Source: Tricharina praecox
Taxonomy: Eukaryota
Direction: 5' to 3'
Assembly: GCF_024521635.1 (NCBI RefSeq)
Contig: NW_026250418.1
Coordinates: 248,001 to 312,000, forward strand
Length of the DNA: 64,000 nt
Shown: piece after piece, positions 151 to 9,879 of the stretch
How the letters are laid out: the number at the start of each line of letters is the position of its first letter
How positions within the stretch are numbered: position 1 is the first letter of the stretch
Translations under genes and position numbers: made by a program
The notes under the pieces: generated by a model
The model's database searches: none
What the model was told of the DNA's origin: nothing
The model's input: only the letters and a program-made list of their open reading frames with translations

Positions 151-738
151 TGTGGTGATGCGGTCGGGTGGGGTGGGGTGGCGGTGGTGGGGGTGGACGA
201 GATGGTGAGGGTGAATGCGGGTTGGCCGGGTGTTGCGGTTCAGATGATGGTCGTGAAGTCACCACACCTCCAATTGGACGCGGGGTGGTGGCACTCGAAA
301 GAGGAGAATCGTAATTGGCTGTTAGTAATCTCGCCCACCGTCTTGGCGGAAAGCAAGACAGACTTCACTTCACCGCTTTTGCAGCTTACCCTCCGAACCG
401 CAACTACAACCCGCCCCCGGAAGACCAGAACGGCCCGCCAACGAACAAACAACTTTATCCTCCCGCCTTCCCTCCCTCCTTCTGCATACATCAATCCCAT
501 CCTCCGTCCCCACTACTACCACCGCTACTACTCCCCACGTACCTACACTTACCACCACCCTCCCACCCACCTCCCATCCCCCCTCCTCCCCCACACACTT
601 ACTAAGAAGGTTTTTGTCCTACTACCTACACCACACCGGTCGACATCACCTCTAATACTACCGACCTTACCTCCCTCAACCATACCTACCACCACCGCCC
701 GCACCACCTCCCCACTTCCTACGCAAGCACCACAAGCA

Positions 739-3511
739 ATGTCGCGACTACAGCAAGACACCTTCATTGACGAAGAGGAAGAATACTGGTTTGCCTTTGC
801 CCTCCCTCCCCGCCATGCTATCCTTTTCCCCGCCAAACTCTCTAATCGCGCCCCGCTCGGTATAGTCCTCTTTGCGTGGAGGAGTTTGACGTCCAAGATC
901 GTAACTTCAAACCGTGCCCCTGCGGCTATCAGGTATAGCTCCCTGCTGTTGAATCTGGAGGACGACATGGGAGAATGTGTGTTGATGTGTAGCTGCCTGC
1001 GAACATAGATTTGCCAGTTTTGCTTCAACAATATCAGGACCAACCTCAACGGCCTCTGTCCGGCGTGCCGGAGGGAGTACCGCGAGGAGACGATTGAGTA
1101 CAAGGCGATCACTGCGGAGGAGTATGATGTCCTTGTCGATTGAAGGGGCGAAGTGGGGTGGGTGATTTATGGGCTAATGCTGGCGTAGATTGAAAGCTGA
1201 AGACAGCAAGAAGAAACGCCTCGCTAGCGAGAAACGAAAGCACGAAGCACAGAAACGCGAGATCGAAGCGCTCAACCGCAAACATCTCTCTGGCCTCCGA
1301 GTGATCCAGCGGAATCTGGTATATGTTACTGGACTCAACCCCCGGATCCGCGAGGAAGAGCTGCTTGCGACGCTGCGCGGCGATCAGTACTTCGGACAGT
1401 ACGGGAAGATCCTCAAGATCGTCGTCAACAAGCGGACTGCTCAGGGGAGTCCTGGGCAGGTGCACCACAGCTCGCATCAGGACTCTCAGGGATTGGGTGT
1501 CTACGTCACGTTCTCGAATAAAAATGAGGCGGAGAAGTGCATTGCTGCTGTCGACGGTAGTGAGAATGGTGACCGCACCCTGAGGGCTACCTACGGCACT
1601 ACGAAGTACTGCTCGGCCTACCTTCGGAATGAAACTTGTCCAAATAAGAATTGCATGTTTCTACACGAACCGGGCGAGGAAGCAGAGTCATTTAGCAGGA
1701 TGGAGCTGTCTACGGCCAACTCGAGGCAGAACAATCAGGGGAAGGAGCAGCTGCAGCAGCTGCAGCAGCACAGTGCGTATGGTCACCAGCCGCAGCCTTC
1801 GAGACCGCCCCAGAGAGAACATCATCCGACAGCGCCGCATCACGAAATGGCAAGGACGAACTCCCACGTAGGGTCCGCTGCTGGGGATGCCGATGGAGCA
1901 TCGGCGTTGCCCTCGACGGCGAATTGGGCTAAGAACCCCCCTACCCCGGCGTCTCGTCCAGCTTCTCTGGTGCACTCGATTGCAAGCAACCAGATGCCTT
2001 CGAAGGTTTCCACGCCTAGTCCGAAGGATATACCGGCTTCGCCGCTGGCTCTGGCACAGCACGTCCTGAGTGCCCGAGATCGGGAAAATGGAAAGAAGGC
2101 GCCGGATCGCACGAAACCATCGGTACCGTCTCCTACGATGTCTACTTCCTCGGGTGTATCAAACGCGAACGGGAAATCGGTGGGAGTCATAGGACAGCCC
2201 GTACCGGCCCCCGTTACGAAACCACCAACCCCAGCACCAGCTCCACCCCCGGTCGTGGTGGCTAAGCCGAAAGCACCAGCAGTGCAGGCGATTCCTACTG
2301 CCTTGGTGGAGCAGATGCAACGAATGCAACGGATGCAGCGGGCTATCACCAATCCGAATTTCAGGTTTGTGCTGTCGCCGACGGCCTTTTCGGCCGAGGA
2401 ATTCGAGCAGTTGTGCAAGTTCCCGCCCATGTTCGACAAACACGGTGGTAGGCGAAGACGGGAAGTCATGGAGAAGATGAAGAAGCAGGCGGTAGAGTCC
2501 GGAGGCGAGAAAGTGGCTCAGCAGTCTCCTGCCGGGACGGCCGCCGCCCCTCCACCCATGGGATTGCCGTTGCGGGGGCTCACTCCGCTGCAGCAACAGC
2601 AGCATCGTGATGTCAGTGGACAGCAGTTGCAGAACCTCCAGGGCCTCGGTGCTCTTCAGCAGGAGTCTTTACTGCAACAACAGCAACACCAGCAGCAACA
2701 CCAGCAGCAGCAGCAATCCGCGCTTCGAACCCAAACTCCTCAGAGCCTCCTGCAGCAAGCTAGTGGTCAACAAGGCTTCAGTGGTGCTTTCCAGGGTCAA
2801 GGTCAAGGACCTATGGGTCCGCCGCACCAGGGTGGTGGTCACACTCGGCAGTCATCCAGGTATACTTTCGCAAACGACAACCCTCTGACGGCCGGAACGA
2901 GTGTCAATGCTCGCAGTAACGCCGCACATATGGCCGAGCAGATCCGCATGATGCCTCCCCAGCAACAGCAGCAGATGCCCCACCAACAGCAACTCGCACA
3001 GATGTACGGTAGTGCGCCTAGTCTCGGCGGTTCTCTGTTGGGGTCTGTCCAGCAGCCGCCTCCAGGGCTCAAGAACGCGCCAACTCCACCTGCACCCGGC
3101 CTCGGTGGTATTCCCATGGGCAACATCCCTGGCCTCGGACAGTTCTCTGGCATGGGATTGGGTGGCCATCACGGAAAGAGCGAGGGCGAGAACCTGCTGC
3201 TTCGGGAGCTGCTGGCTGGAAACGGTGCTCCGCGCCTGGGTGGTGCGTCGAGTACGTCCCTGACGAGGGGTGGTGACGGGAAGCGTAATGTCCCGTTATC
3301 CACAGGAGGAAGACCTGGATTTACTGACCGGCGCGGCATAGTTGATCTTGGAGACCCCAGCATCCTTCAGGCGCGAGTTGCCCAACCCCATCACCAGATG
3401 CAACAGCAACAGCAGCAACACCAGGGGCTTCAAGCCGCAGGACAGGGCCAACAAGGTGGGTACAATCCCATGAACTATTACGCTAGCGCGCAGGCCGCTG
3501 GTAGATGGTAG
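739..3511 (+). CDS. NOT4: CCR4-NOT E3 ubiquitin ligase Not4/Mot2, short isoform (RING + RRM + CCCH + Q-rich tail)
   Basis: Exons 739-788, 866-932, 1009-1121, 1189-3284, 3342-3511; the 57-nt in-frame intron 3285-3341 is probable. Spliced RING reads CPLCVEEFDVQDRNFKPCPCGYQICQFC...CPACR. RRM RVIQRNLVYVTGL...YFGQYGKI; YGTTKYCSAYLRNETCPNKNCMFLHE. Confidence 0.95.
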
Positions 3512-4472
3512 TTCGGACAGGCAGGCAGACAGGCAGGCACAGGACACACGCAGAGATGATACGATCAATTGGACCATGCAATGCTTTCCTTTTTCCACAC
3601 GCGCGGACTAATCATGATTCTTCTTCCTTTCCTTCCTTTATTCGGCGTCTTCTACTCTATATGGGGAGTGTGGTTTTTGTTCATTACTTCTTTTGCTTTC
3701 GACTTTATGGGTTGTAAGTTCGTCTGCTTCTGCTTCTGCTTTGTTTTGTTATTGATTCAAAGGTTTCCTTCTCCTTTTCCCATTCCTTGTCTTTTGCTGT
3801 GCTTGTGTTTGGAGGGGGTAAATACCTGACAGACATGTTTTACCGGGAGGGTTTGACTTTCTAGTGATTGTTTTTCGTTTTCTTTTTGGGTCTACGTTTG
3901 TCCGACTACTCTTGTTTTCCTTTTTCGTCTATCCTCATGGGATGTTTCTTTTTTGGCATTCGGGGTCGGTATGTATATGGGAGGTCAAGGAGTACGACCC
4001 GGCGGCAGTCATCACCAAGAAATGGGTTACGGGGGCGTTACATACCATACTAACTTTCATGTACGTTGTCTATACCTCTTTTTCTCCTTTTTTTTTTTTT
4101 TTTTTTTTTGCAGAGAGCGTCGTCATTACTTCTATTATACTTTGTGGGACGGTGGAGCGGGGGAATGCAACACAATATTTTTTCTCTGCAACAAAGCAAT
4201 AACTGATGGTGCTTCGCGCTGCGTGATTACTTTTTGTAGGGTTGCTGTCCTTCCTTCCTTCCTTCCTTTCACCTTCGTCTGCGTTCATTCTGTCTGCTGC
4301 GTACTATCTCTACTAACCACCAAGACGTGTTCATCTGCTGCTGCTTGTCCGACTACTACTAACTAACCTCCACGACCTGCCTGCCTGTCTGCCTCCCGGA
4401 CTACTAACTACCGTTTGCGTGATTTTGAGTTGATGTGGAAGGGATGGAAATGCTAAGGGGTATTTGTAGCAG

Positions 4473-5854
4473 ATTTCGGACCTCTCATTCCTACGGGACC
4501 GAGGATTCGTGTGCCCGCTCCTGCGCCCGCCACTACTACTACTACGCCTGCAGCTGCGACTCCGGTGCCCGTTACGCCGATCGTGAGTGACGAGGATTTC
4601 CCGGCTCTTGCGCCGCCGCAGGCTGCTGTGGGCACCGGAGTGTTGATCGGGAAGAAGGAGAAGAAGGAGCGGAAGAGAAGGGAGAAGAAGGAGGGGAGAG
4701 ATGGTAAGGAGGAGGAGACTGAGGAGGTGAAGGATGGAGTGGAGAAGACGGCGGAGGTGGAGAAATTGGTGGAAGTCGTGGAGAAGAAGGAGATCAAGAC
4801 GGCGAAGGTCGAGGAGACGCTCCCTATGGTCGTCGAGATCTCGGCCACTCCCGGTCCTTCCAAAGGCACAGAGAAGGAGGAGAGAAAGCCTCCAGCTTCA
4901 GCCTTCGAGCCCTCGGAGCCCTCCACCAAGCGCCAGGGCCCCCTGATGATGCGCATCCTCTCCAAAGATTCCCTACGTTCGGTCCCCTCGACTGTCTCCG
5001 ACATGACCGAGAGTCGTCCTTCCACGCCCCTCATCAACAAGCCGATCACTGGCCCTGCGCTGGCGGATATGCCTCTGGTAGTGACCAAGACCAAGAGCGC
5101 CTTGAAGAAGGAGCGGCTTGCTGCTCTGAAAGAGAAGGAGCGCTTCGAGGCCGAGGCTCTCGCCGCCGCGCGGGCAAATGATGTTCAAGCTCCCCTCGTG
5201 GGCCGGATGAAGAAGAAAAAAGAGGCGAAGCTTTCCGCCAGGAAAACTTCCGACAAGTCTACTGTCGGCGACACGGAGGACACAGCCTCGGAGCGCCCGA
5301 CCTCCGACACCGTCTCGGTAGCCGACACCACCGACCTCCCGCTCCCCCTCCCGCGCCCCGCGGAGCCAGAGCACAAAACCCCCATCCAGCTAATCTCGGA
5401 GATCCTCTATTCCCACTCCTCGCTGCTCCGCTATGAAATGTTCAAGCCCCATCTGCCAGGCCTGAAGTGGGAATCGATGATTTCGCCCGAAGACCTGCTG
5501 CTGCTCCGCAGCACCGCGGCGAACTCGCTCACCACCGCCGCCATGCCGCTCTCGCTCTTCGAGTCCCGCATCTTTGTGTCCCCCGCGGGCAGCACGCTCC
5601 ACGGCTTGAGCGCGGAACAGGAGGAGCGCTACGTGCAGCTCGAGAAGGAGCAGAAGTTCAAGGACGGCCGCATCAACCGCGAGGGCATAGACGCGCTGTG
5701 GAAGCCGAGCGTACCCGAGATGGAAGCGCGAGGCGAGAAGTCCGCCAAGGAACTTGAGGCCGCCGTCAAGGAGAGCAGGAAGATCGCTGAGGGATACGAG
5801 AAGAAGTGCGAGAAACTCGCCAAGAGGAATCGTAAAATCATGGGCTTGGTTTGA
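4473..5854 (+). CDS. NOT4: Probable alternative terminal exon of NOT4 (long isoform): Lys/Glu-rich, DEDFPAL motif, C-terminal coiled coil
   Basis: The frame lacks a 5' ATG but is preceded by branch GCTAAG and a TAGCAG acceptor (AG 4471-4472). The acceptor is phase 1, matching the phase-1 donor AAG|GTGGGT at 3456. Confidence 0.7.
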
Positions 5855-7251
5855 CTTATTACCTGCCTGTGTGGCCTCTGGTGCTGGTTTTTTTTTCTGG
5901 GCCTGGCTTTGGCGCTGGCCTGCTGCTTTGAGCGATTCGATGGGCATGGATGGGCGCTTGTTGTACTTTTACTTTTACTTTTGCTGCGCGCGCGGTTGAC
6001 TGATGACTGATGCATGACTGATGGATGGCTAGACGTGTGTGTCGCCTGTTAATTGTTGGGAAGGGGAGAGGGATACCCATTACCTACATACCTCGGTGCT
6101 TTGCTTTGCTTTGCTTGGTGATAGCGATCGAGAAAATGAATATGCGATTAGATGCGATTAGATGTGTGCATGATAATGATACTAGTACTGTGATGCGCTG
6201 TGCTGTCAACAAGCGATCGATGTGAAGCCGTTGAGTGTTCCGGGGAGGGAGATGGTATGGTATAGGTACTCATCCCAATCATCCCAATCATGTAGCGCGG
6301 TGTTTGTGCTTTTTTTTTTATGGGAATTGGCGAAGGAGCGCTTGAAGATTCAATGGATAGATATTTTACACTGGGTACTACTGTGTTGATACTGCGGTGG
6401 ATAGGTACCTGATACGATCACGCAGCTGTGCCAGTACCAGTACCAGTGACAGCAGTGCGTAGAGTAGTTGGTCCGGACTCGTATGATACCGGAATCCGGC
6501 GTCGGCATCGGCCTCATTTTATATACCAGTTCTTGGAGTGGAATGAGCCCCTCACTCTCAGGTCTGCTCGAACCATCCATCAGTCTTGCGTGCCTACCTT
6601 TTTTTTTTTTGGTTTCTTCGTACCTATTCACTCTTCAGTAAGATCTTCGCACTGTATGAGCAACCACCTACGAGTACATTACCCACCATCAACTTCAGCA
6701 TTCCCCCTCCCCTTCCCACACCACATCACAAGACATCACTCGACTTTACCGCAGGTACGGCACTCAAGAAGTAGAAACAATGGCCATTCCATTCCGCACC
6801 CTCCCCACAAACCGTGCGGCATATCAATTGATCAAGCAACACAACACGACACAACACGACACAACGAAAGCAAAGAAGAACGCAGGGGAAAAACGCTATT
6901 CCGAATTATCAAAAAGAGAAGGAAAAAAAAAGAAAGAAAAAAGAAAAAAAAACAACACACTAAATGCCATACAATTCCCATCATCATTCCCTTATCATCC
7001 CTTATTCCATTCAAAGTGTAGAAAGTAACTATCAAGGCAAGAGTAAGGTAAGGTAACACGCCGAAGAAAAAGAACGAAGAAAAAAAACGCAAGGAAAAAA
7101 GTATTCAATCATTTTCCAATGTAGATGGATAGGATAGGATCACCTTCATCCATCCACCAATACAATAAATCTGATCGAGTACTACTGCTGCTGCTGTAGC
7201 ACAGCCATCTTCATCCTCTCACTGCGAGTAGCGTCCGTGCTTGACCAAGTG

Positions 7252-9879
7252 CTATTCGGTCTGTGCAGGTGCACCACCGCCCTCTCCGCCCTCTCCGAAC
7301 CGTCCCCCACGCTTGCCACCGCCACCGCCACGACCACCACGACCAACACCTCTCTCGAAGCCTTGGCCTCGCGGCTTCCCTCCCCTGCCGCCGCCGAAGC
7401 CGCCACGCCTGTAGCCGGGACCTGAGTTGTCGCTCTCGCTAGTGTTACCTCCTATGGCTTGGCCTCTGCTCCACTTGCTCGAGTCGATGCCTCCGCCGCG
7501 GCTGACGCGGTGCTCCGGGTGTCCCCGTCGATTGGGGCCCATGTCCAGGGGCTTGAAGTGAACCCTGGTGTCATCTCGGTCGAAGTTGCGGGTGGTAAGT
7601 TCTTTGGGAAGCTTGTTGAGGATCTCACGTGCCTGCTCATCCGTCTCGGTGTATAACAAGTGGTACAACCCCCCGGTCTTGCTGGTCTTCTCCTGAATAT
7701 CGACAATGTACTTGCGGACGTCTTCCGAGATCAGTTCCTTGACGGCAGTGACTGTCGCAGCGTTCTGAACGTGGAGGCCGTACTTGCTCCTGTAATTCGG
7801 TCCCTCGGCAACCGGGGTAGCTGGGTTCGAAGAATGGCCAGTCGAGGGGACCAACGGCTCGCGTGTGTCTTCCTCCTGAGCTCCGTTGCTGTTCCCGGGT
7901 TTCTGCTCCTCCGGCGATGATGGCTCCGGGGCGGCGGCGGGAGTGGGGGCCCTATTGGCCACAGCAGGGGCCGGACGGGGGGTCGCAGGCTTCACTGCCG
8001 GAACAGCGGGCTCGATTCTTGGAGATGGGCCTGTGGGCGGCGGGGGCGAGGTCCTGGCGGGATTCGACACGTTCTTCCTCGGGCCCAACGGAACAGCCGG
8101 GGCGATTGGCGTCTGTGCGGTTGGAGCAGGTGGGGGTGCAACCGGCTGCGATGGCGGAAGAGCCTGCTGGTAACCGGGGTGCGGGATCTTGCCTCCTCTG
8201 TGAGAGAAGTTGAATCCTTGAGCCTTCATCTCCGTACCGATCCTACCACCCTCGATTTCCAAAATGAGCCAGCCAAAGGCGGCATCAGCCAAGTTAAAGT
8301 TCCACATGTTCTTGAAAGCCGATTCGTCCACCTGGCCAGCTCCGGGGGCATTGCTAGCGGATGGACCACCGAAGGGGTTGCCACCGTTAGCGCTAGTCGG
8401 CATCTTTTCGATAAACGCTAACGCATTCTCAAGAAGTCGTTGCTGCCGCGCGCTCTGCTCGACGGCTGGTTGAACCTCTCCCTTAACGGTTTCCCAGACA
8501 TCATTGAACGAGGCTTTCGACGACGCAAGCTTGCCGCGGTAGTAGTCGAGACTGGGGTTGACGCTGAACTCGTTGTAGGAGCTTCCGTAACGGAAATGGA
8601 GACCTGCAGAGATCGAGAAATCCGCTTTCAGGGTTACGGAGAGCTGGTTGAGCAAGCCTTCCCTCGCCGGGGAATTGTGGGTGATGAAGATTCTGGTTTC
8701 CGCGGGATCGTAGACGCGAGTCGCAGTGTCGATGAGATCTCCCATCTGCAGGAGGGTGGTCCACATAGTTCCTTGGCCACCGGCGATTGTAGTCTTTCCC
8801 TCACCATTGTCAAATAGTTTGTGCATGACAACAGCACCACCGAGACCCAGTAACCGAAGCTTGACTCCACCGACATCTAGAAGGCGCGAAGAAGCCTCGT
8901 CGATGATGTGAAGGTTTGGAACCTTGTATTCGCCGGAACGGAATCTCTCCAGAACACGGACATCCTCGCACGCACCCCACACGGTGTAGACAGGGACATC
9001 GAGGGAGTAAGTTCCGTTCAGGAACAGAGGTAGCTCGGACAGCGCATGTGGTACCTGCTGGACGAGTGACTTGATATTCTGGGGTCCGGGAGCCTGGACC
9101 TGTTTCTTGAGCGAATCCTCGAGGAGGGGTGAGTACTGAACCACATGGCGCAGGGTCCTGTTTTACGAAAACGGCAGGTGTCAGCTAGCTGTTCTGTTCC
9201 GGTGTGGTTTTTTTTTCTTTTTCCGACAAGCGCGAAAAATAGCTGGCAAGCACGGGCGGGGAGAAAACAAACTTGTCAGCGATCCTCTCGAGAGAGCTGT
9301 CGTCGTAGAATCCGAAATCACCGGTGTGGATGATGTAGTCGGCATTCGCCTTCTTGGCCAGCTCGTTCAGAGTTCGGAGATGACCTGGAGAAGAATTCCG
9401 GGTCAGTACGATCGCCACCATTTCCACAGGCTACCGGCCGAACACACGACACGACATGGGGTGCCGTGTGTGTGGGATGGAGGAAGCGAACAAACCTCTA
9501 ACATCAGCGACACATAGGACTCTAGCACCGCTCTTCTCGATTATCTTCGTGTTTGGAGGGAGGCCAGCAACACCGAGGGGCTGTGGCATTCCGGTGACGG
9601 ATCCATTTGGCAGATATTGCTGATGAACACTGCCGAACTGGGGCGGGGTGCGATGCTGCGGTGGTAACTGTGAGGTGGCAGAAAGGTCAGTTCGAACGAC
9701 TCCATCGGTCGGCCGCGATGGACGGAGCTAGAGGGGGAGCAGAGGAAGGGCAGGAAGTGGAGGAGGAGGAGAAGAAGGCATAATATTGAATGACAGGTGT
9801 GAGGTGATGATGGAAGACTGCCTGACTGGGTGGGGGGAGGGGGGTTGCAGCGGAAGGTACAGGAACTTACAGTAGTCAT
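7252..9879 (-). CDS. Calcineurin-like metallophosphoesterase family protein (DUF2433-type) with Pro-rich region and RGG-rich C-terminus
   Basis: Micro first exon ATG ACT ACT|GTAAGT at 9879. Spliced motifs RVLCVADVRG, IIHTGDFGFYD, VYTVWGACED, FITHNSPAREG, SAGLHFRYG. Stop at 7252-7254. Confidence 0.85.

Follow-up and report, generated by a model that had tools for sequence, protein, structure and literature searches.

The NOT4 locus of Tricharina praecox raises the question of whether a single gene gives rise to one Not4 protein or to two that differ in their C-terminal tails. The gene lies near the left end of a 64,000-nt stretch of the genome (the window; all coordinates are positions in this stretch, forward strand), and an earlier sequence-only reading had proposed that two alternative C-termini are chosen there through an alternative intron of about 1 kb. 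The two-tail layout is confirmed as an observation, and the architecture is very likely both real and old: the short tail is seen in RNA contigs, and the long one is supported by the public protein P0001, by indirect RNA evidence and by conservation across fungal classes. In the composite (or bleeding) terminal exons of animals and plants, use of an internal 5′ splice site is in competition with reading on to a stop codon and 3′ end close by, and an internal donor, an in-frame stop close behind it and an in-phase distal exon are all found here. A composite terminal exon of NOT4 yielding two tails is the explanation that best fits the whole, and one that we hold with good confidence. The parts of the gene are as follows.

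739..788, + strand: NOT4 exon 1, with the ATG at 739; its translation is the N-terminus of P0001
789..1188, + strand: introns 1–3 and exons 2–3, the RING region; all three introns are spliced in contigs of RNA runs X1 and X2
1189..3284, + strand: exon 4, with the RRM, a low-complexity region and a PPGL motif (residue 701), common to all forms
3285..3341, + strand: intron 4, beginning with donor D4; 57 nt, in frame, without a stop; spliced in X1 and X2
3342..3455, + strand: shared part of exon 5, with a DPSILQAR motif
3456..3511, + strand: internal donor D5, AAG/GTGGGT (slash at the exon boundary), overlapping the 18-residue short tail and its stop
3456..4469, + strand: alternative long intron, 1014 nt, whose 5′ part is the 3′ untranslated region (UTR) of the short mRNA
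4452..4472, + strand: branch-like site and tandem TAG/CAG acceptor, of which the first AG (4469) fits the data
4470..5854, + strand: distal coding exon, the 461-residue extension of the long form
5855..6168, + strand: 3′ UTR of the distal exon, to the extent covered by one RNA contig (X1)

On its domain content the gene is NOT4, predicted to encode an E3 ligase with RING and RRM. The N-terminal C4C4 RING typical of Not4/CNOT4 is present and matches solved Not4 domains (1e4u, E 3.6e-21; 5aie, E 5.2e-21), with PF14570 found on P0001, and the RRM follows it (PF00076, E 3.4e-6; also a match to 2cpi). A PPPG-phi motif is found in the C-terminal region of Not4/CNOT4 (PMC6362812; this and most other papers given by identifier are cited from excerpts of their text); here PPGL stands at residue 701, and all 70 of the 70 long proteins compared have PPG[FLIM] in their shared part. 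A 60-residue candidate for the yeast-like Not1-binding segment gave no PDB match at E<=10.

The signals named in the sequence-only reading are where it had placed them. The AAG/GTGGGT donor at 3456 stands 18 codons ahead of the tail stop (TAG, 3509-3511); the tandem NAGNAG acceptor at 4467-4472 reads TAG/CAG; the branch point ahead of it is GCTAAG at 4452-4457, with a non-consensus last base; the distal open reading frame (ORF), described as lacking a 5′ ATG, runs from 4457 to 5854 with its first ATG only at 4826 (residue 124); and the donors at 3285 and 3456, said to share a phase, both fit the phase of both distal acceptors. With introns 1–4 removed (introns 1–3 being 789-865, 933-1008 and 1122-1188, of 67-77 nt in the X1 and X2 contigs) and 3456 unused, translation gives a short form of 831 aa ending in RW. 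Removal of the long intron as well gives 1274 aa with acceptor 4469 or 1273 aa with acceptor 4472, so that the expected size of about 1270 aa held while the choice of 4472 as acceptor gave way to 4469. Donor 3285 joined straight to the distal acceptors would give 1236 or 1235 aa. P0001, which is labelled Tricharina praecox, is letter for letter the 1274-aa model with the 3455^4470 joint; it is a gene model and no measurement, and is the one long match to the distal ORF. Within the genome the distal ORF has a single match, at the NOT4 locus itself.

The RNA data are assembled contigs of two runs from two studies, X1 and X2, and such contigs cannot show ends, strand or levels; a third, small-share run (X3) was used solely for a loose end of 11 letters at intron 4, which equals 3342-3352. 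In X1 and X2 alike, a contig is spliced 3284^3342 and then continues unspliced past 3456, through the stop and into the 3′ UTR (to 4074 in X1 and 3986 in X2), crossing the donor-like sites at 3714 and 3969 unspliced, and introns 1–3 are spliced in other contigs of the same runs. The unspliced form is therefore present in processed RNA, with intron 4 removed and 3456 read through in two studies, which bears out the form of about 830 aa with a 3′ UTR inside the intron. The 3285 donor does have the same phase, as had been noted; in this RNA it is joined to the local acceptor at 3341.

The distal exon is present on a separate contig, covering 4468-6168 in X1 and 4554-5955 in X2. The X1 contig is 1712 letters long, of which 1701 align, and the 11 letters ahead of 4468 are unplaced. 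Ten donor–acceptor pairs were tried and 3456/4469 alone predicts a contig start at 4468, since AG is the last dinucleotide of exon and intron alike; in 1190-4420 there are eight GT sites, 3456 among them, that could in principle give this start. The junction 3455^4470 or 3455^4473 had been the proposed test of the long form, and the start at 4468, which fits 3455^4470, is good indirect support for that joint. A small X1 contig spans 4121-4350, and no listed contig lies over 4351-4467; depth is about 144-157 in the proximal part, 37-60 in the distal part and 3 at 4121-4350. Neither is used as evidence, a gap being no proof and contig depth no basis for ranking the parts of a gene. Taken with P0001, these data allow the 1274-aa long form to be strongly inferred for this species.

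Conservation at the DNA level carries the argument beyond Tricharina. A motif scan of metagenome contigs recovered at least 114 loci, with full flanks for 80; two chance matches (L024 and L112), one aberrant frame (L102) and one cut locus (L114) were left out of the counts, and with these four dropped and the window included there are 79 distinct exon-5 peptides. Several features of the codons at D5 are striking. First, Gln is encoded by CAA in 75 of 79, against a background of 44%. Second, the first Gly is GGT in 72 of 79 (background 32%). Third, the codon after it is GGG in 62 of 79, against 14% of Gly codons in the background. Finally, the complete AAG/GTGGGT is found in 61 of the 79. By its codon choice, D5 is under synonymous constraint as a splice site within coding sequence, and this constraint on CAAG/GTGGGT in the metagenome loci, together with the long and short homologues described below, agrees with the expectation that the donor position would be conserved across Pezizomycotina. 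At the other end of the intron, 42 loci are followed by a frame of 300 codons or more. Their first branch site with its AG keeps phase in 34, falls out of phase in 3 and was not found in 5; the window is counted among the last because of its GCTAAG. The long intron is 546-1029 nt (median 639) in 32 loci, and the other introns of the gene are 57-77 nt. Lack of intron 2 is not by itself proof that a contig is a transcript, as 6 of 53 loci lack it, including L079, a long contig.

The two tails are also apparent among proteins. The best 120 of 2244 homologues found (length window 700-2230) fall into two sizes, with 60 of no more than 900 aa, 60 of at least 1250 aa and none between. The named homologues include what we take, by species name, to be Pezizo-, Orbilio-, Geoglosso-, Xylono-, Leotio-, Dothideo- and Lecanoromycetes, with no Eurotiomycete among the named rows; Sordariomycete long forms came from a separate search with the extension domain. 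Short forms end in a GG[YF]...RW tail, with the RW terminus in 52 of 60, and tails of about 13-25 residues recur across the 79 exon-5 peptides. Sorted by regular expression, 114 of 160 long proteins leave the shared sequence at D5, 33 leave it at D4 and 13 retain part of the tail. One relative, P0050, is a 1477-aa call whose RING is intact; it comes from a contig of 5163 nt and reads as a transcript in which D4 is joined to the distal exon. Many distant filamentous fungi probably make two Not4 forms, because the same splice signals recur in many distant species.

The upstream donor D4 adds a second choice. It is found in 46 of 54 distinct loci, as GTGAGT in 44, and all 46 copies of intron 4 keep frame and lack stops; 44 of them encode a lysine-rich motif, which we assume to resemble a nuclear localization signal (NLS). 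Branch site and acceptor are both kept in 32 of the 46. In most relatives (e.g. L003, L005 and L022) intron 4 is about 190 nt and its branch site doubles as Ala-Asn codons; the window copy is only 57 nt, without the basic motif. Among contigs with the RING introns removed, intron 4 is retained in L012, L029, L046 and L078 and removed in L042; retention in L029, L046 and L078 is no choice, because the local acceptor is lost there. D5 is non-consensus in 8 of 13 loci without a local acceptor and in 2 of 32 others, which is in keeping with direct joining of D4 to the distal exon in some lineages; the long forms annotated in Alternaria and Parastagonospora break at the D4 position. Nine loci (L016, L025, L029, L033, L039, L046, L074, L076 and L080) have lost the intron-4 acceptor and kept D4, mostly with a weakened D5.

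Three further elements, none of them named in the sequence-only reading, lie within the long intron.

3520..3539, + strand: 5′ arm of a long-range helix, 20 nt, 95% complementary to 4378-4397 (z 5.6)
4061..4113, + strand: predicted nested mini-intron of 53 nt, with a GTACGT donor, T-run, CAG and a weak branch site; homologues are spliced in L046 and L039, whereas no splicing of it is seen in the RNA contigs of T. praecox
4378..4397, + strand: 3′ arm of the long-range helix, about 55 nt ahead of the branch site

The word TGTAYGT at the mini-intron donor is present in 31 of 32 long introns, whereas 500 shuffles gave a mean of 2.4 and at most 8, and the reverse strand 0; of the distinct loci, 53 of 57 carry it. 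Loci L046 and L039 lack exactly the 51-56-nt stretch seen in the near-identical L025, L080, L029 and L074, which argues that TGTAYGT is a working donor. The X1 contig enters the window mini-intron at 4061 unspliced and ends at 4074. In a stwintron, an inner intron interrupts the donor, branch or acceptor of an outer one; the nested donor lies 292-690 nt behind D5 and 222-440 nt ahead of the distal acceptor, and given these distances the mini-intron is not of that kind. Its removal re-forms an AG in the window and some other loci and not in the rest. A perfect TACTAAC is located at 4048-4054, just ahead of the nested donor, and removal of the mini-intron would bring an AG close behind it and possibly form a new acceptor, an arrangement that is not general across loci. 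A joint of 3456 to 4113 would give 842 aa and is without support.

Pairing is found both around the mini-intron and across the whole intron. In the window, a 20-nt hairpin stem (4097-4116/4183-4202, 80% complementary) lies over the mini-intron T-run and acceptor. Across loci, a stem around the mini-intron is present in 26 of 48 (z>3), and in an alignment of 36 of 41 candidate segments (without L008, L042, L049, L054, L077 and the window, and with the stem taken from L022) stem cells pair at 72.8%, against 67.0% when shuffled and 28-62% when slid. Minimum-energy and centroid folds of the window intron both close it with the long helix, and in end-to-end pairing 13 of 32 introns outscore the best of 32 cross-species controls. 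An Rfam search of seven loci including the window gave none at gathering score, the single match (E 0.1) lying outside the intron. Between 4300 and 4410 there are several TACTAAC/ACTAAC copies in ACT repeats, mostly without a suitable AG behind them, which may be decoy branch sites or simple repeats.

The extension itself has 461 residues, 33% of them K/R/D/E, with conserved blocks, so the description of it as large and charged was apt; a confidently predicted terminal helix can be added. Two features stand out.

4595..4609, + strand: acidic FPxL motif DFPAL, a candidate RACK1-interacting motif (RIM), ahead of the first Met, at residue 47 of the distal frame
5744..5839, + strand: conserved C-terminal helix of the extension (model residues 131-162; 10-residue blocks have a mean predicted local distance difference test, pLDDT, of 93-97 over 131-160)

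The [DE]FPxL motif is present in the distal part of 135 of 160 long proteins, where 1.1 would be expected; of the distal frames, 24 of 39 have it. ZAK and SERBP1 bind RACK1 through an FPxL motif (PMC12823453), and a predicted RIM has been named in human CNOT4 (bioRxiv 10.64898/2026.08.26.747346); we regard the extension FPxL as a candidate for the same role. The extension has no convincing Pfam family and no atlas match. Its predicted fold has a template modelling score (pTM) of 0.29, and a structure search gave nothing at E<=0.001, the best Z being 4.5 for the end helix only; a new fold cannot be concluded from this lack of a match. Searching the genome for WD40 proteins gave no usable RACK1. 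Contigs C23, C39, C44 and C61 (L116-L145) contain long frames with near-identical tandem WD40 repeats at a 126-nt spacing, which we presume to resemble fungal HNWD/NWD repeat genes. Downstream of NOT4, a convergent neighbour with a 636-codon open frame (7252-9162, − strand) ends about 1.1 kb past the distal 3′ UTR.

We propose the following mechanism. Behind exon 4 lie two phase-1 donors (3285 and 3456) and two acceptors (3341 and 4469). Where 3456 is unused, the ribosome reads 18 codons into the intron and stops, giving the 831-aa Not4 with its 3′ UTR inside the intron; where 3456 (or in some lineages a 3285-type donor) is joined to 4469, the tail would be swapped for the 461-residue extension, giving 1274 aa. 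The long-range helix would pull the weak 3456 donor near the weak branch site and should favour the long splice. What becomes of transcripts that bypass this splice is most likely decided by the strong nested donor at 4061 and its mini-intron: with the mini-intron unspliced, RNA ending in or near the intron would be a stable short mRNA, and with it spliced, read-through RNA would carry an intron mark more than 500 nt behind the stop, a signal for nonsense-mediated decay (NMD) in Neurospora. As the likeliest role, the extension would add a ribosome contact through RACK1 and lower Not4 abundance, the RING and RRM being common to both forms. Underlying the choice of tail there may be a race between splicing and intronic polyadenylation, as the sequence-only reading suggested; we leave it at that strength because contigs cannot show 3′ ends and because read-through retention is seen in relatives. 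A bolder extension of the scheme, which we offer as speculation and think doubtful, is an ancient self-regulating splice module in which nested donors, an NLS-like in-frame intron and the mini-intron would give up to five Not4 forms, with Not4/Ccr4-Not setting their ratio via the mini-intron and NMD and so splitting nuclear from ribosome-collision duties.

A number of results weigh against the composite terminal exon or its proposed parts. First, there is no 3455^4470 or 3455^4473 joint among the listed contig rows of X1-X3, and the short-form contig is unbroken at 3455, where a well-covered branch might break it. Second, the metagenome loci were selected by one motif and are related by descent. 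Third, long and short annotations are gene predictions, and Sclerotinia sclerotiorum 1980 has the gene both fused and split within one strain; the same species or strain being short, long or split across annotations points to predictors flipping rather than to splicing. Fourth, the FPxL motif is missing in 15 of the 39 distal frames, and an FPxL-type word occurs in the shared part of 17 of 60 short proteins. Finally, a stem around the mini-intron is not seen in the window (z -1.2), pairs changed on both sides are not above control in the 36 segments (10 vs 9.6), RNAalifold on the MAFFT alignment predicts no pairs, and only 9 of 32 introns show end-to-end pairing with z>3.

Among other explanations, the one that survives best is that the short protein comes mainly from retention of the long intron in mRNAs using the distal poly(A) site, with intronic polyadenylation minor and the nested intron acting as a 3′ UTR intron that tunes decay; we rate this as unlikely, yet a serious contender. 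L046, with its RING introns and mini-intron removed, still crosses the distal acceptor unspliced into the distal exon, which makes retention a real alternative; L009, without intron 4, contains the complete long intron together with the distal frame; the small X1 contig over 4121-4350 is also in keeping with it, and two Logan contigs with spliced short ORFs measure 5.8 and 7.7 kb. Set against these, an assembler can merge overlapping isoforms, L009 may be a genomic sequence that has lost the intron, four other spliced contigs (L012, L029, L039 and L042) end 431-636 nt past the stop, and UGUA/UAUGUA-like words occur at 3970-4063, the last two being weak hints of a proximal 3′ end.

It is improbable that only the long protein matters and that the short form is slowly spliced pre-mRNA or noise. 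The signals of the long intron are indeed weak (a GTGGGT donor and a GCTAAG branch site), and Aspergillus fumigatus Not4 has been studied as one long protein (PMC7773993). The tail, however, is conserved as protein, both in the RW end of the short homologues and in the recurring tails of the exon-5 peptides, and A. fumigatus Not4(1-693) grows almost normally (PMC7773993), which indicates that a form lacking the extension is functional. More improbable still is an independent gene or transcript for the distal ORF, starting within the intron and fused to NOT4 by gene finders: the distal exon does assemble as its own contig in X1 and X2, 4250-4410 is pyrimidine-rich and promoter-like, 13 of 14 matched representatives are stand-alone calls of 363-718 aa and some genomes have two genes annotated, but the conserved DFPAL precedes the first Met (residue 47 against 124), that Met wanders from residue 1 to 497 across loci, branch site and acceptor are kept in phase, 116 of the 120 long matches listed for the extension domain are Not4 proteins, P0050 reads as a fused transcript, and the one genome match to the distal ORF is at this locus.

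The composite terminal exon of NOT4 has relatives among known systems and differs from each. From composite terminal exons of the animal and plant kind it differs in its long intron, which contains a mini-intron of its own, and its proximal poly(A) site is putative. The plant THIC gene has a 3′ UTR intron switch, whereas the NOT4 intron has no significant Rfam family in seven loci and no known ligand. Human Not4 isoforms differ in their C-termini. An 'isoform e' is named in the human case (PMC7615087, PMC5442456). In Neurospora, ck-1a occurs naturally in isoforms with shorter and longer C-termini; its transcript has an intron close to the stop and an extended 3′ UTR and is controlled by NMD (PMC7746235). 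The protein is a different one, and what sets NOT4 apart is a pair of nested donors, a mini-intron inside its long intron and conservation across several classes. Introns behind a stop can trigger NMD in Neurospora (PMC7746235, citing Zhang and Sachs 2015; PMC9801653), and as in those 3′ UTR introns, splicing past the stop could decide mRNA stability here; the NOT4 mini-intron differs in being nested in an alternative coding intron. The A. fumigatus Not4 is likewise a long protein with RING, RRM and a C-terminal region absent from yeast, treated as one protein (PMC7773993), while in the present gene an optional exon encodes the extension and a short form is its natural alternative. ZAK, SERBP1, LARP4 and RNF10 resemble Not4 in that they are ribosome-associated and have a conserved FPxL within a disordered region (PMC12823453; bioRxiv 10.64898/2026.08.26.747346), whereas the NOT4 motif sits in an optional exon, is lacking in some lineages and is known from sequence alone.

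The literature covered contains no report of alternative NOT4 splicing in filamentous fungi; few subscription papers were included, and supplements of splicing surveys may list the event. The string 'splic' occurs 0 times in the main text of PMC7773993, 'not4' does not occur in the main text of PMC9801653, and no fungal Not4 isoforms appear in the excerpts of a review of CCR4-NOT heterogeneity (PMC12746107). Composite terminal exons as a kind of event, and the long Not4 domain, are known already; the conserved switch with its nested intron and in-frame intron did not turn up in the literature covered.

Conserved alternative splicing that changes the protein is regarded as rare in ascomycetes. 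At NOT4, a single event exchanges 18 residues for several hundred on the E3 ligase of Ccr4-Not, with signals that are found again in several classes of fungi. Such a switch explains why databases hold Not4 entries of about 800 or about 1500 residues, or two genes, and a tag at the annotated C-terminus would detect only the long form. In A. fumigatus, truncated Not4 is more abundant and localises differently (PMC7773993), a result for which the two-tail switch offers a natural reading. Should the self-regulating module also prove true, one gene would supply Not4 forms with and without a nuclear signal, and with and without a RACK1-docking, helix-ended extension.

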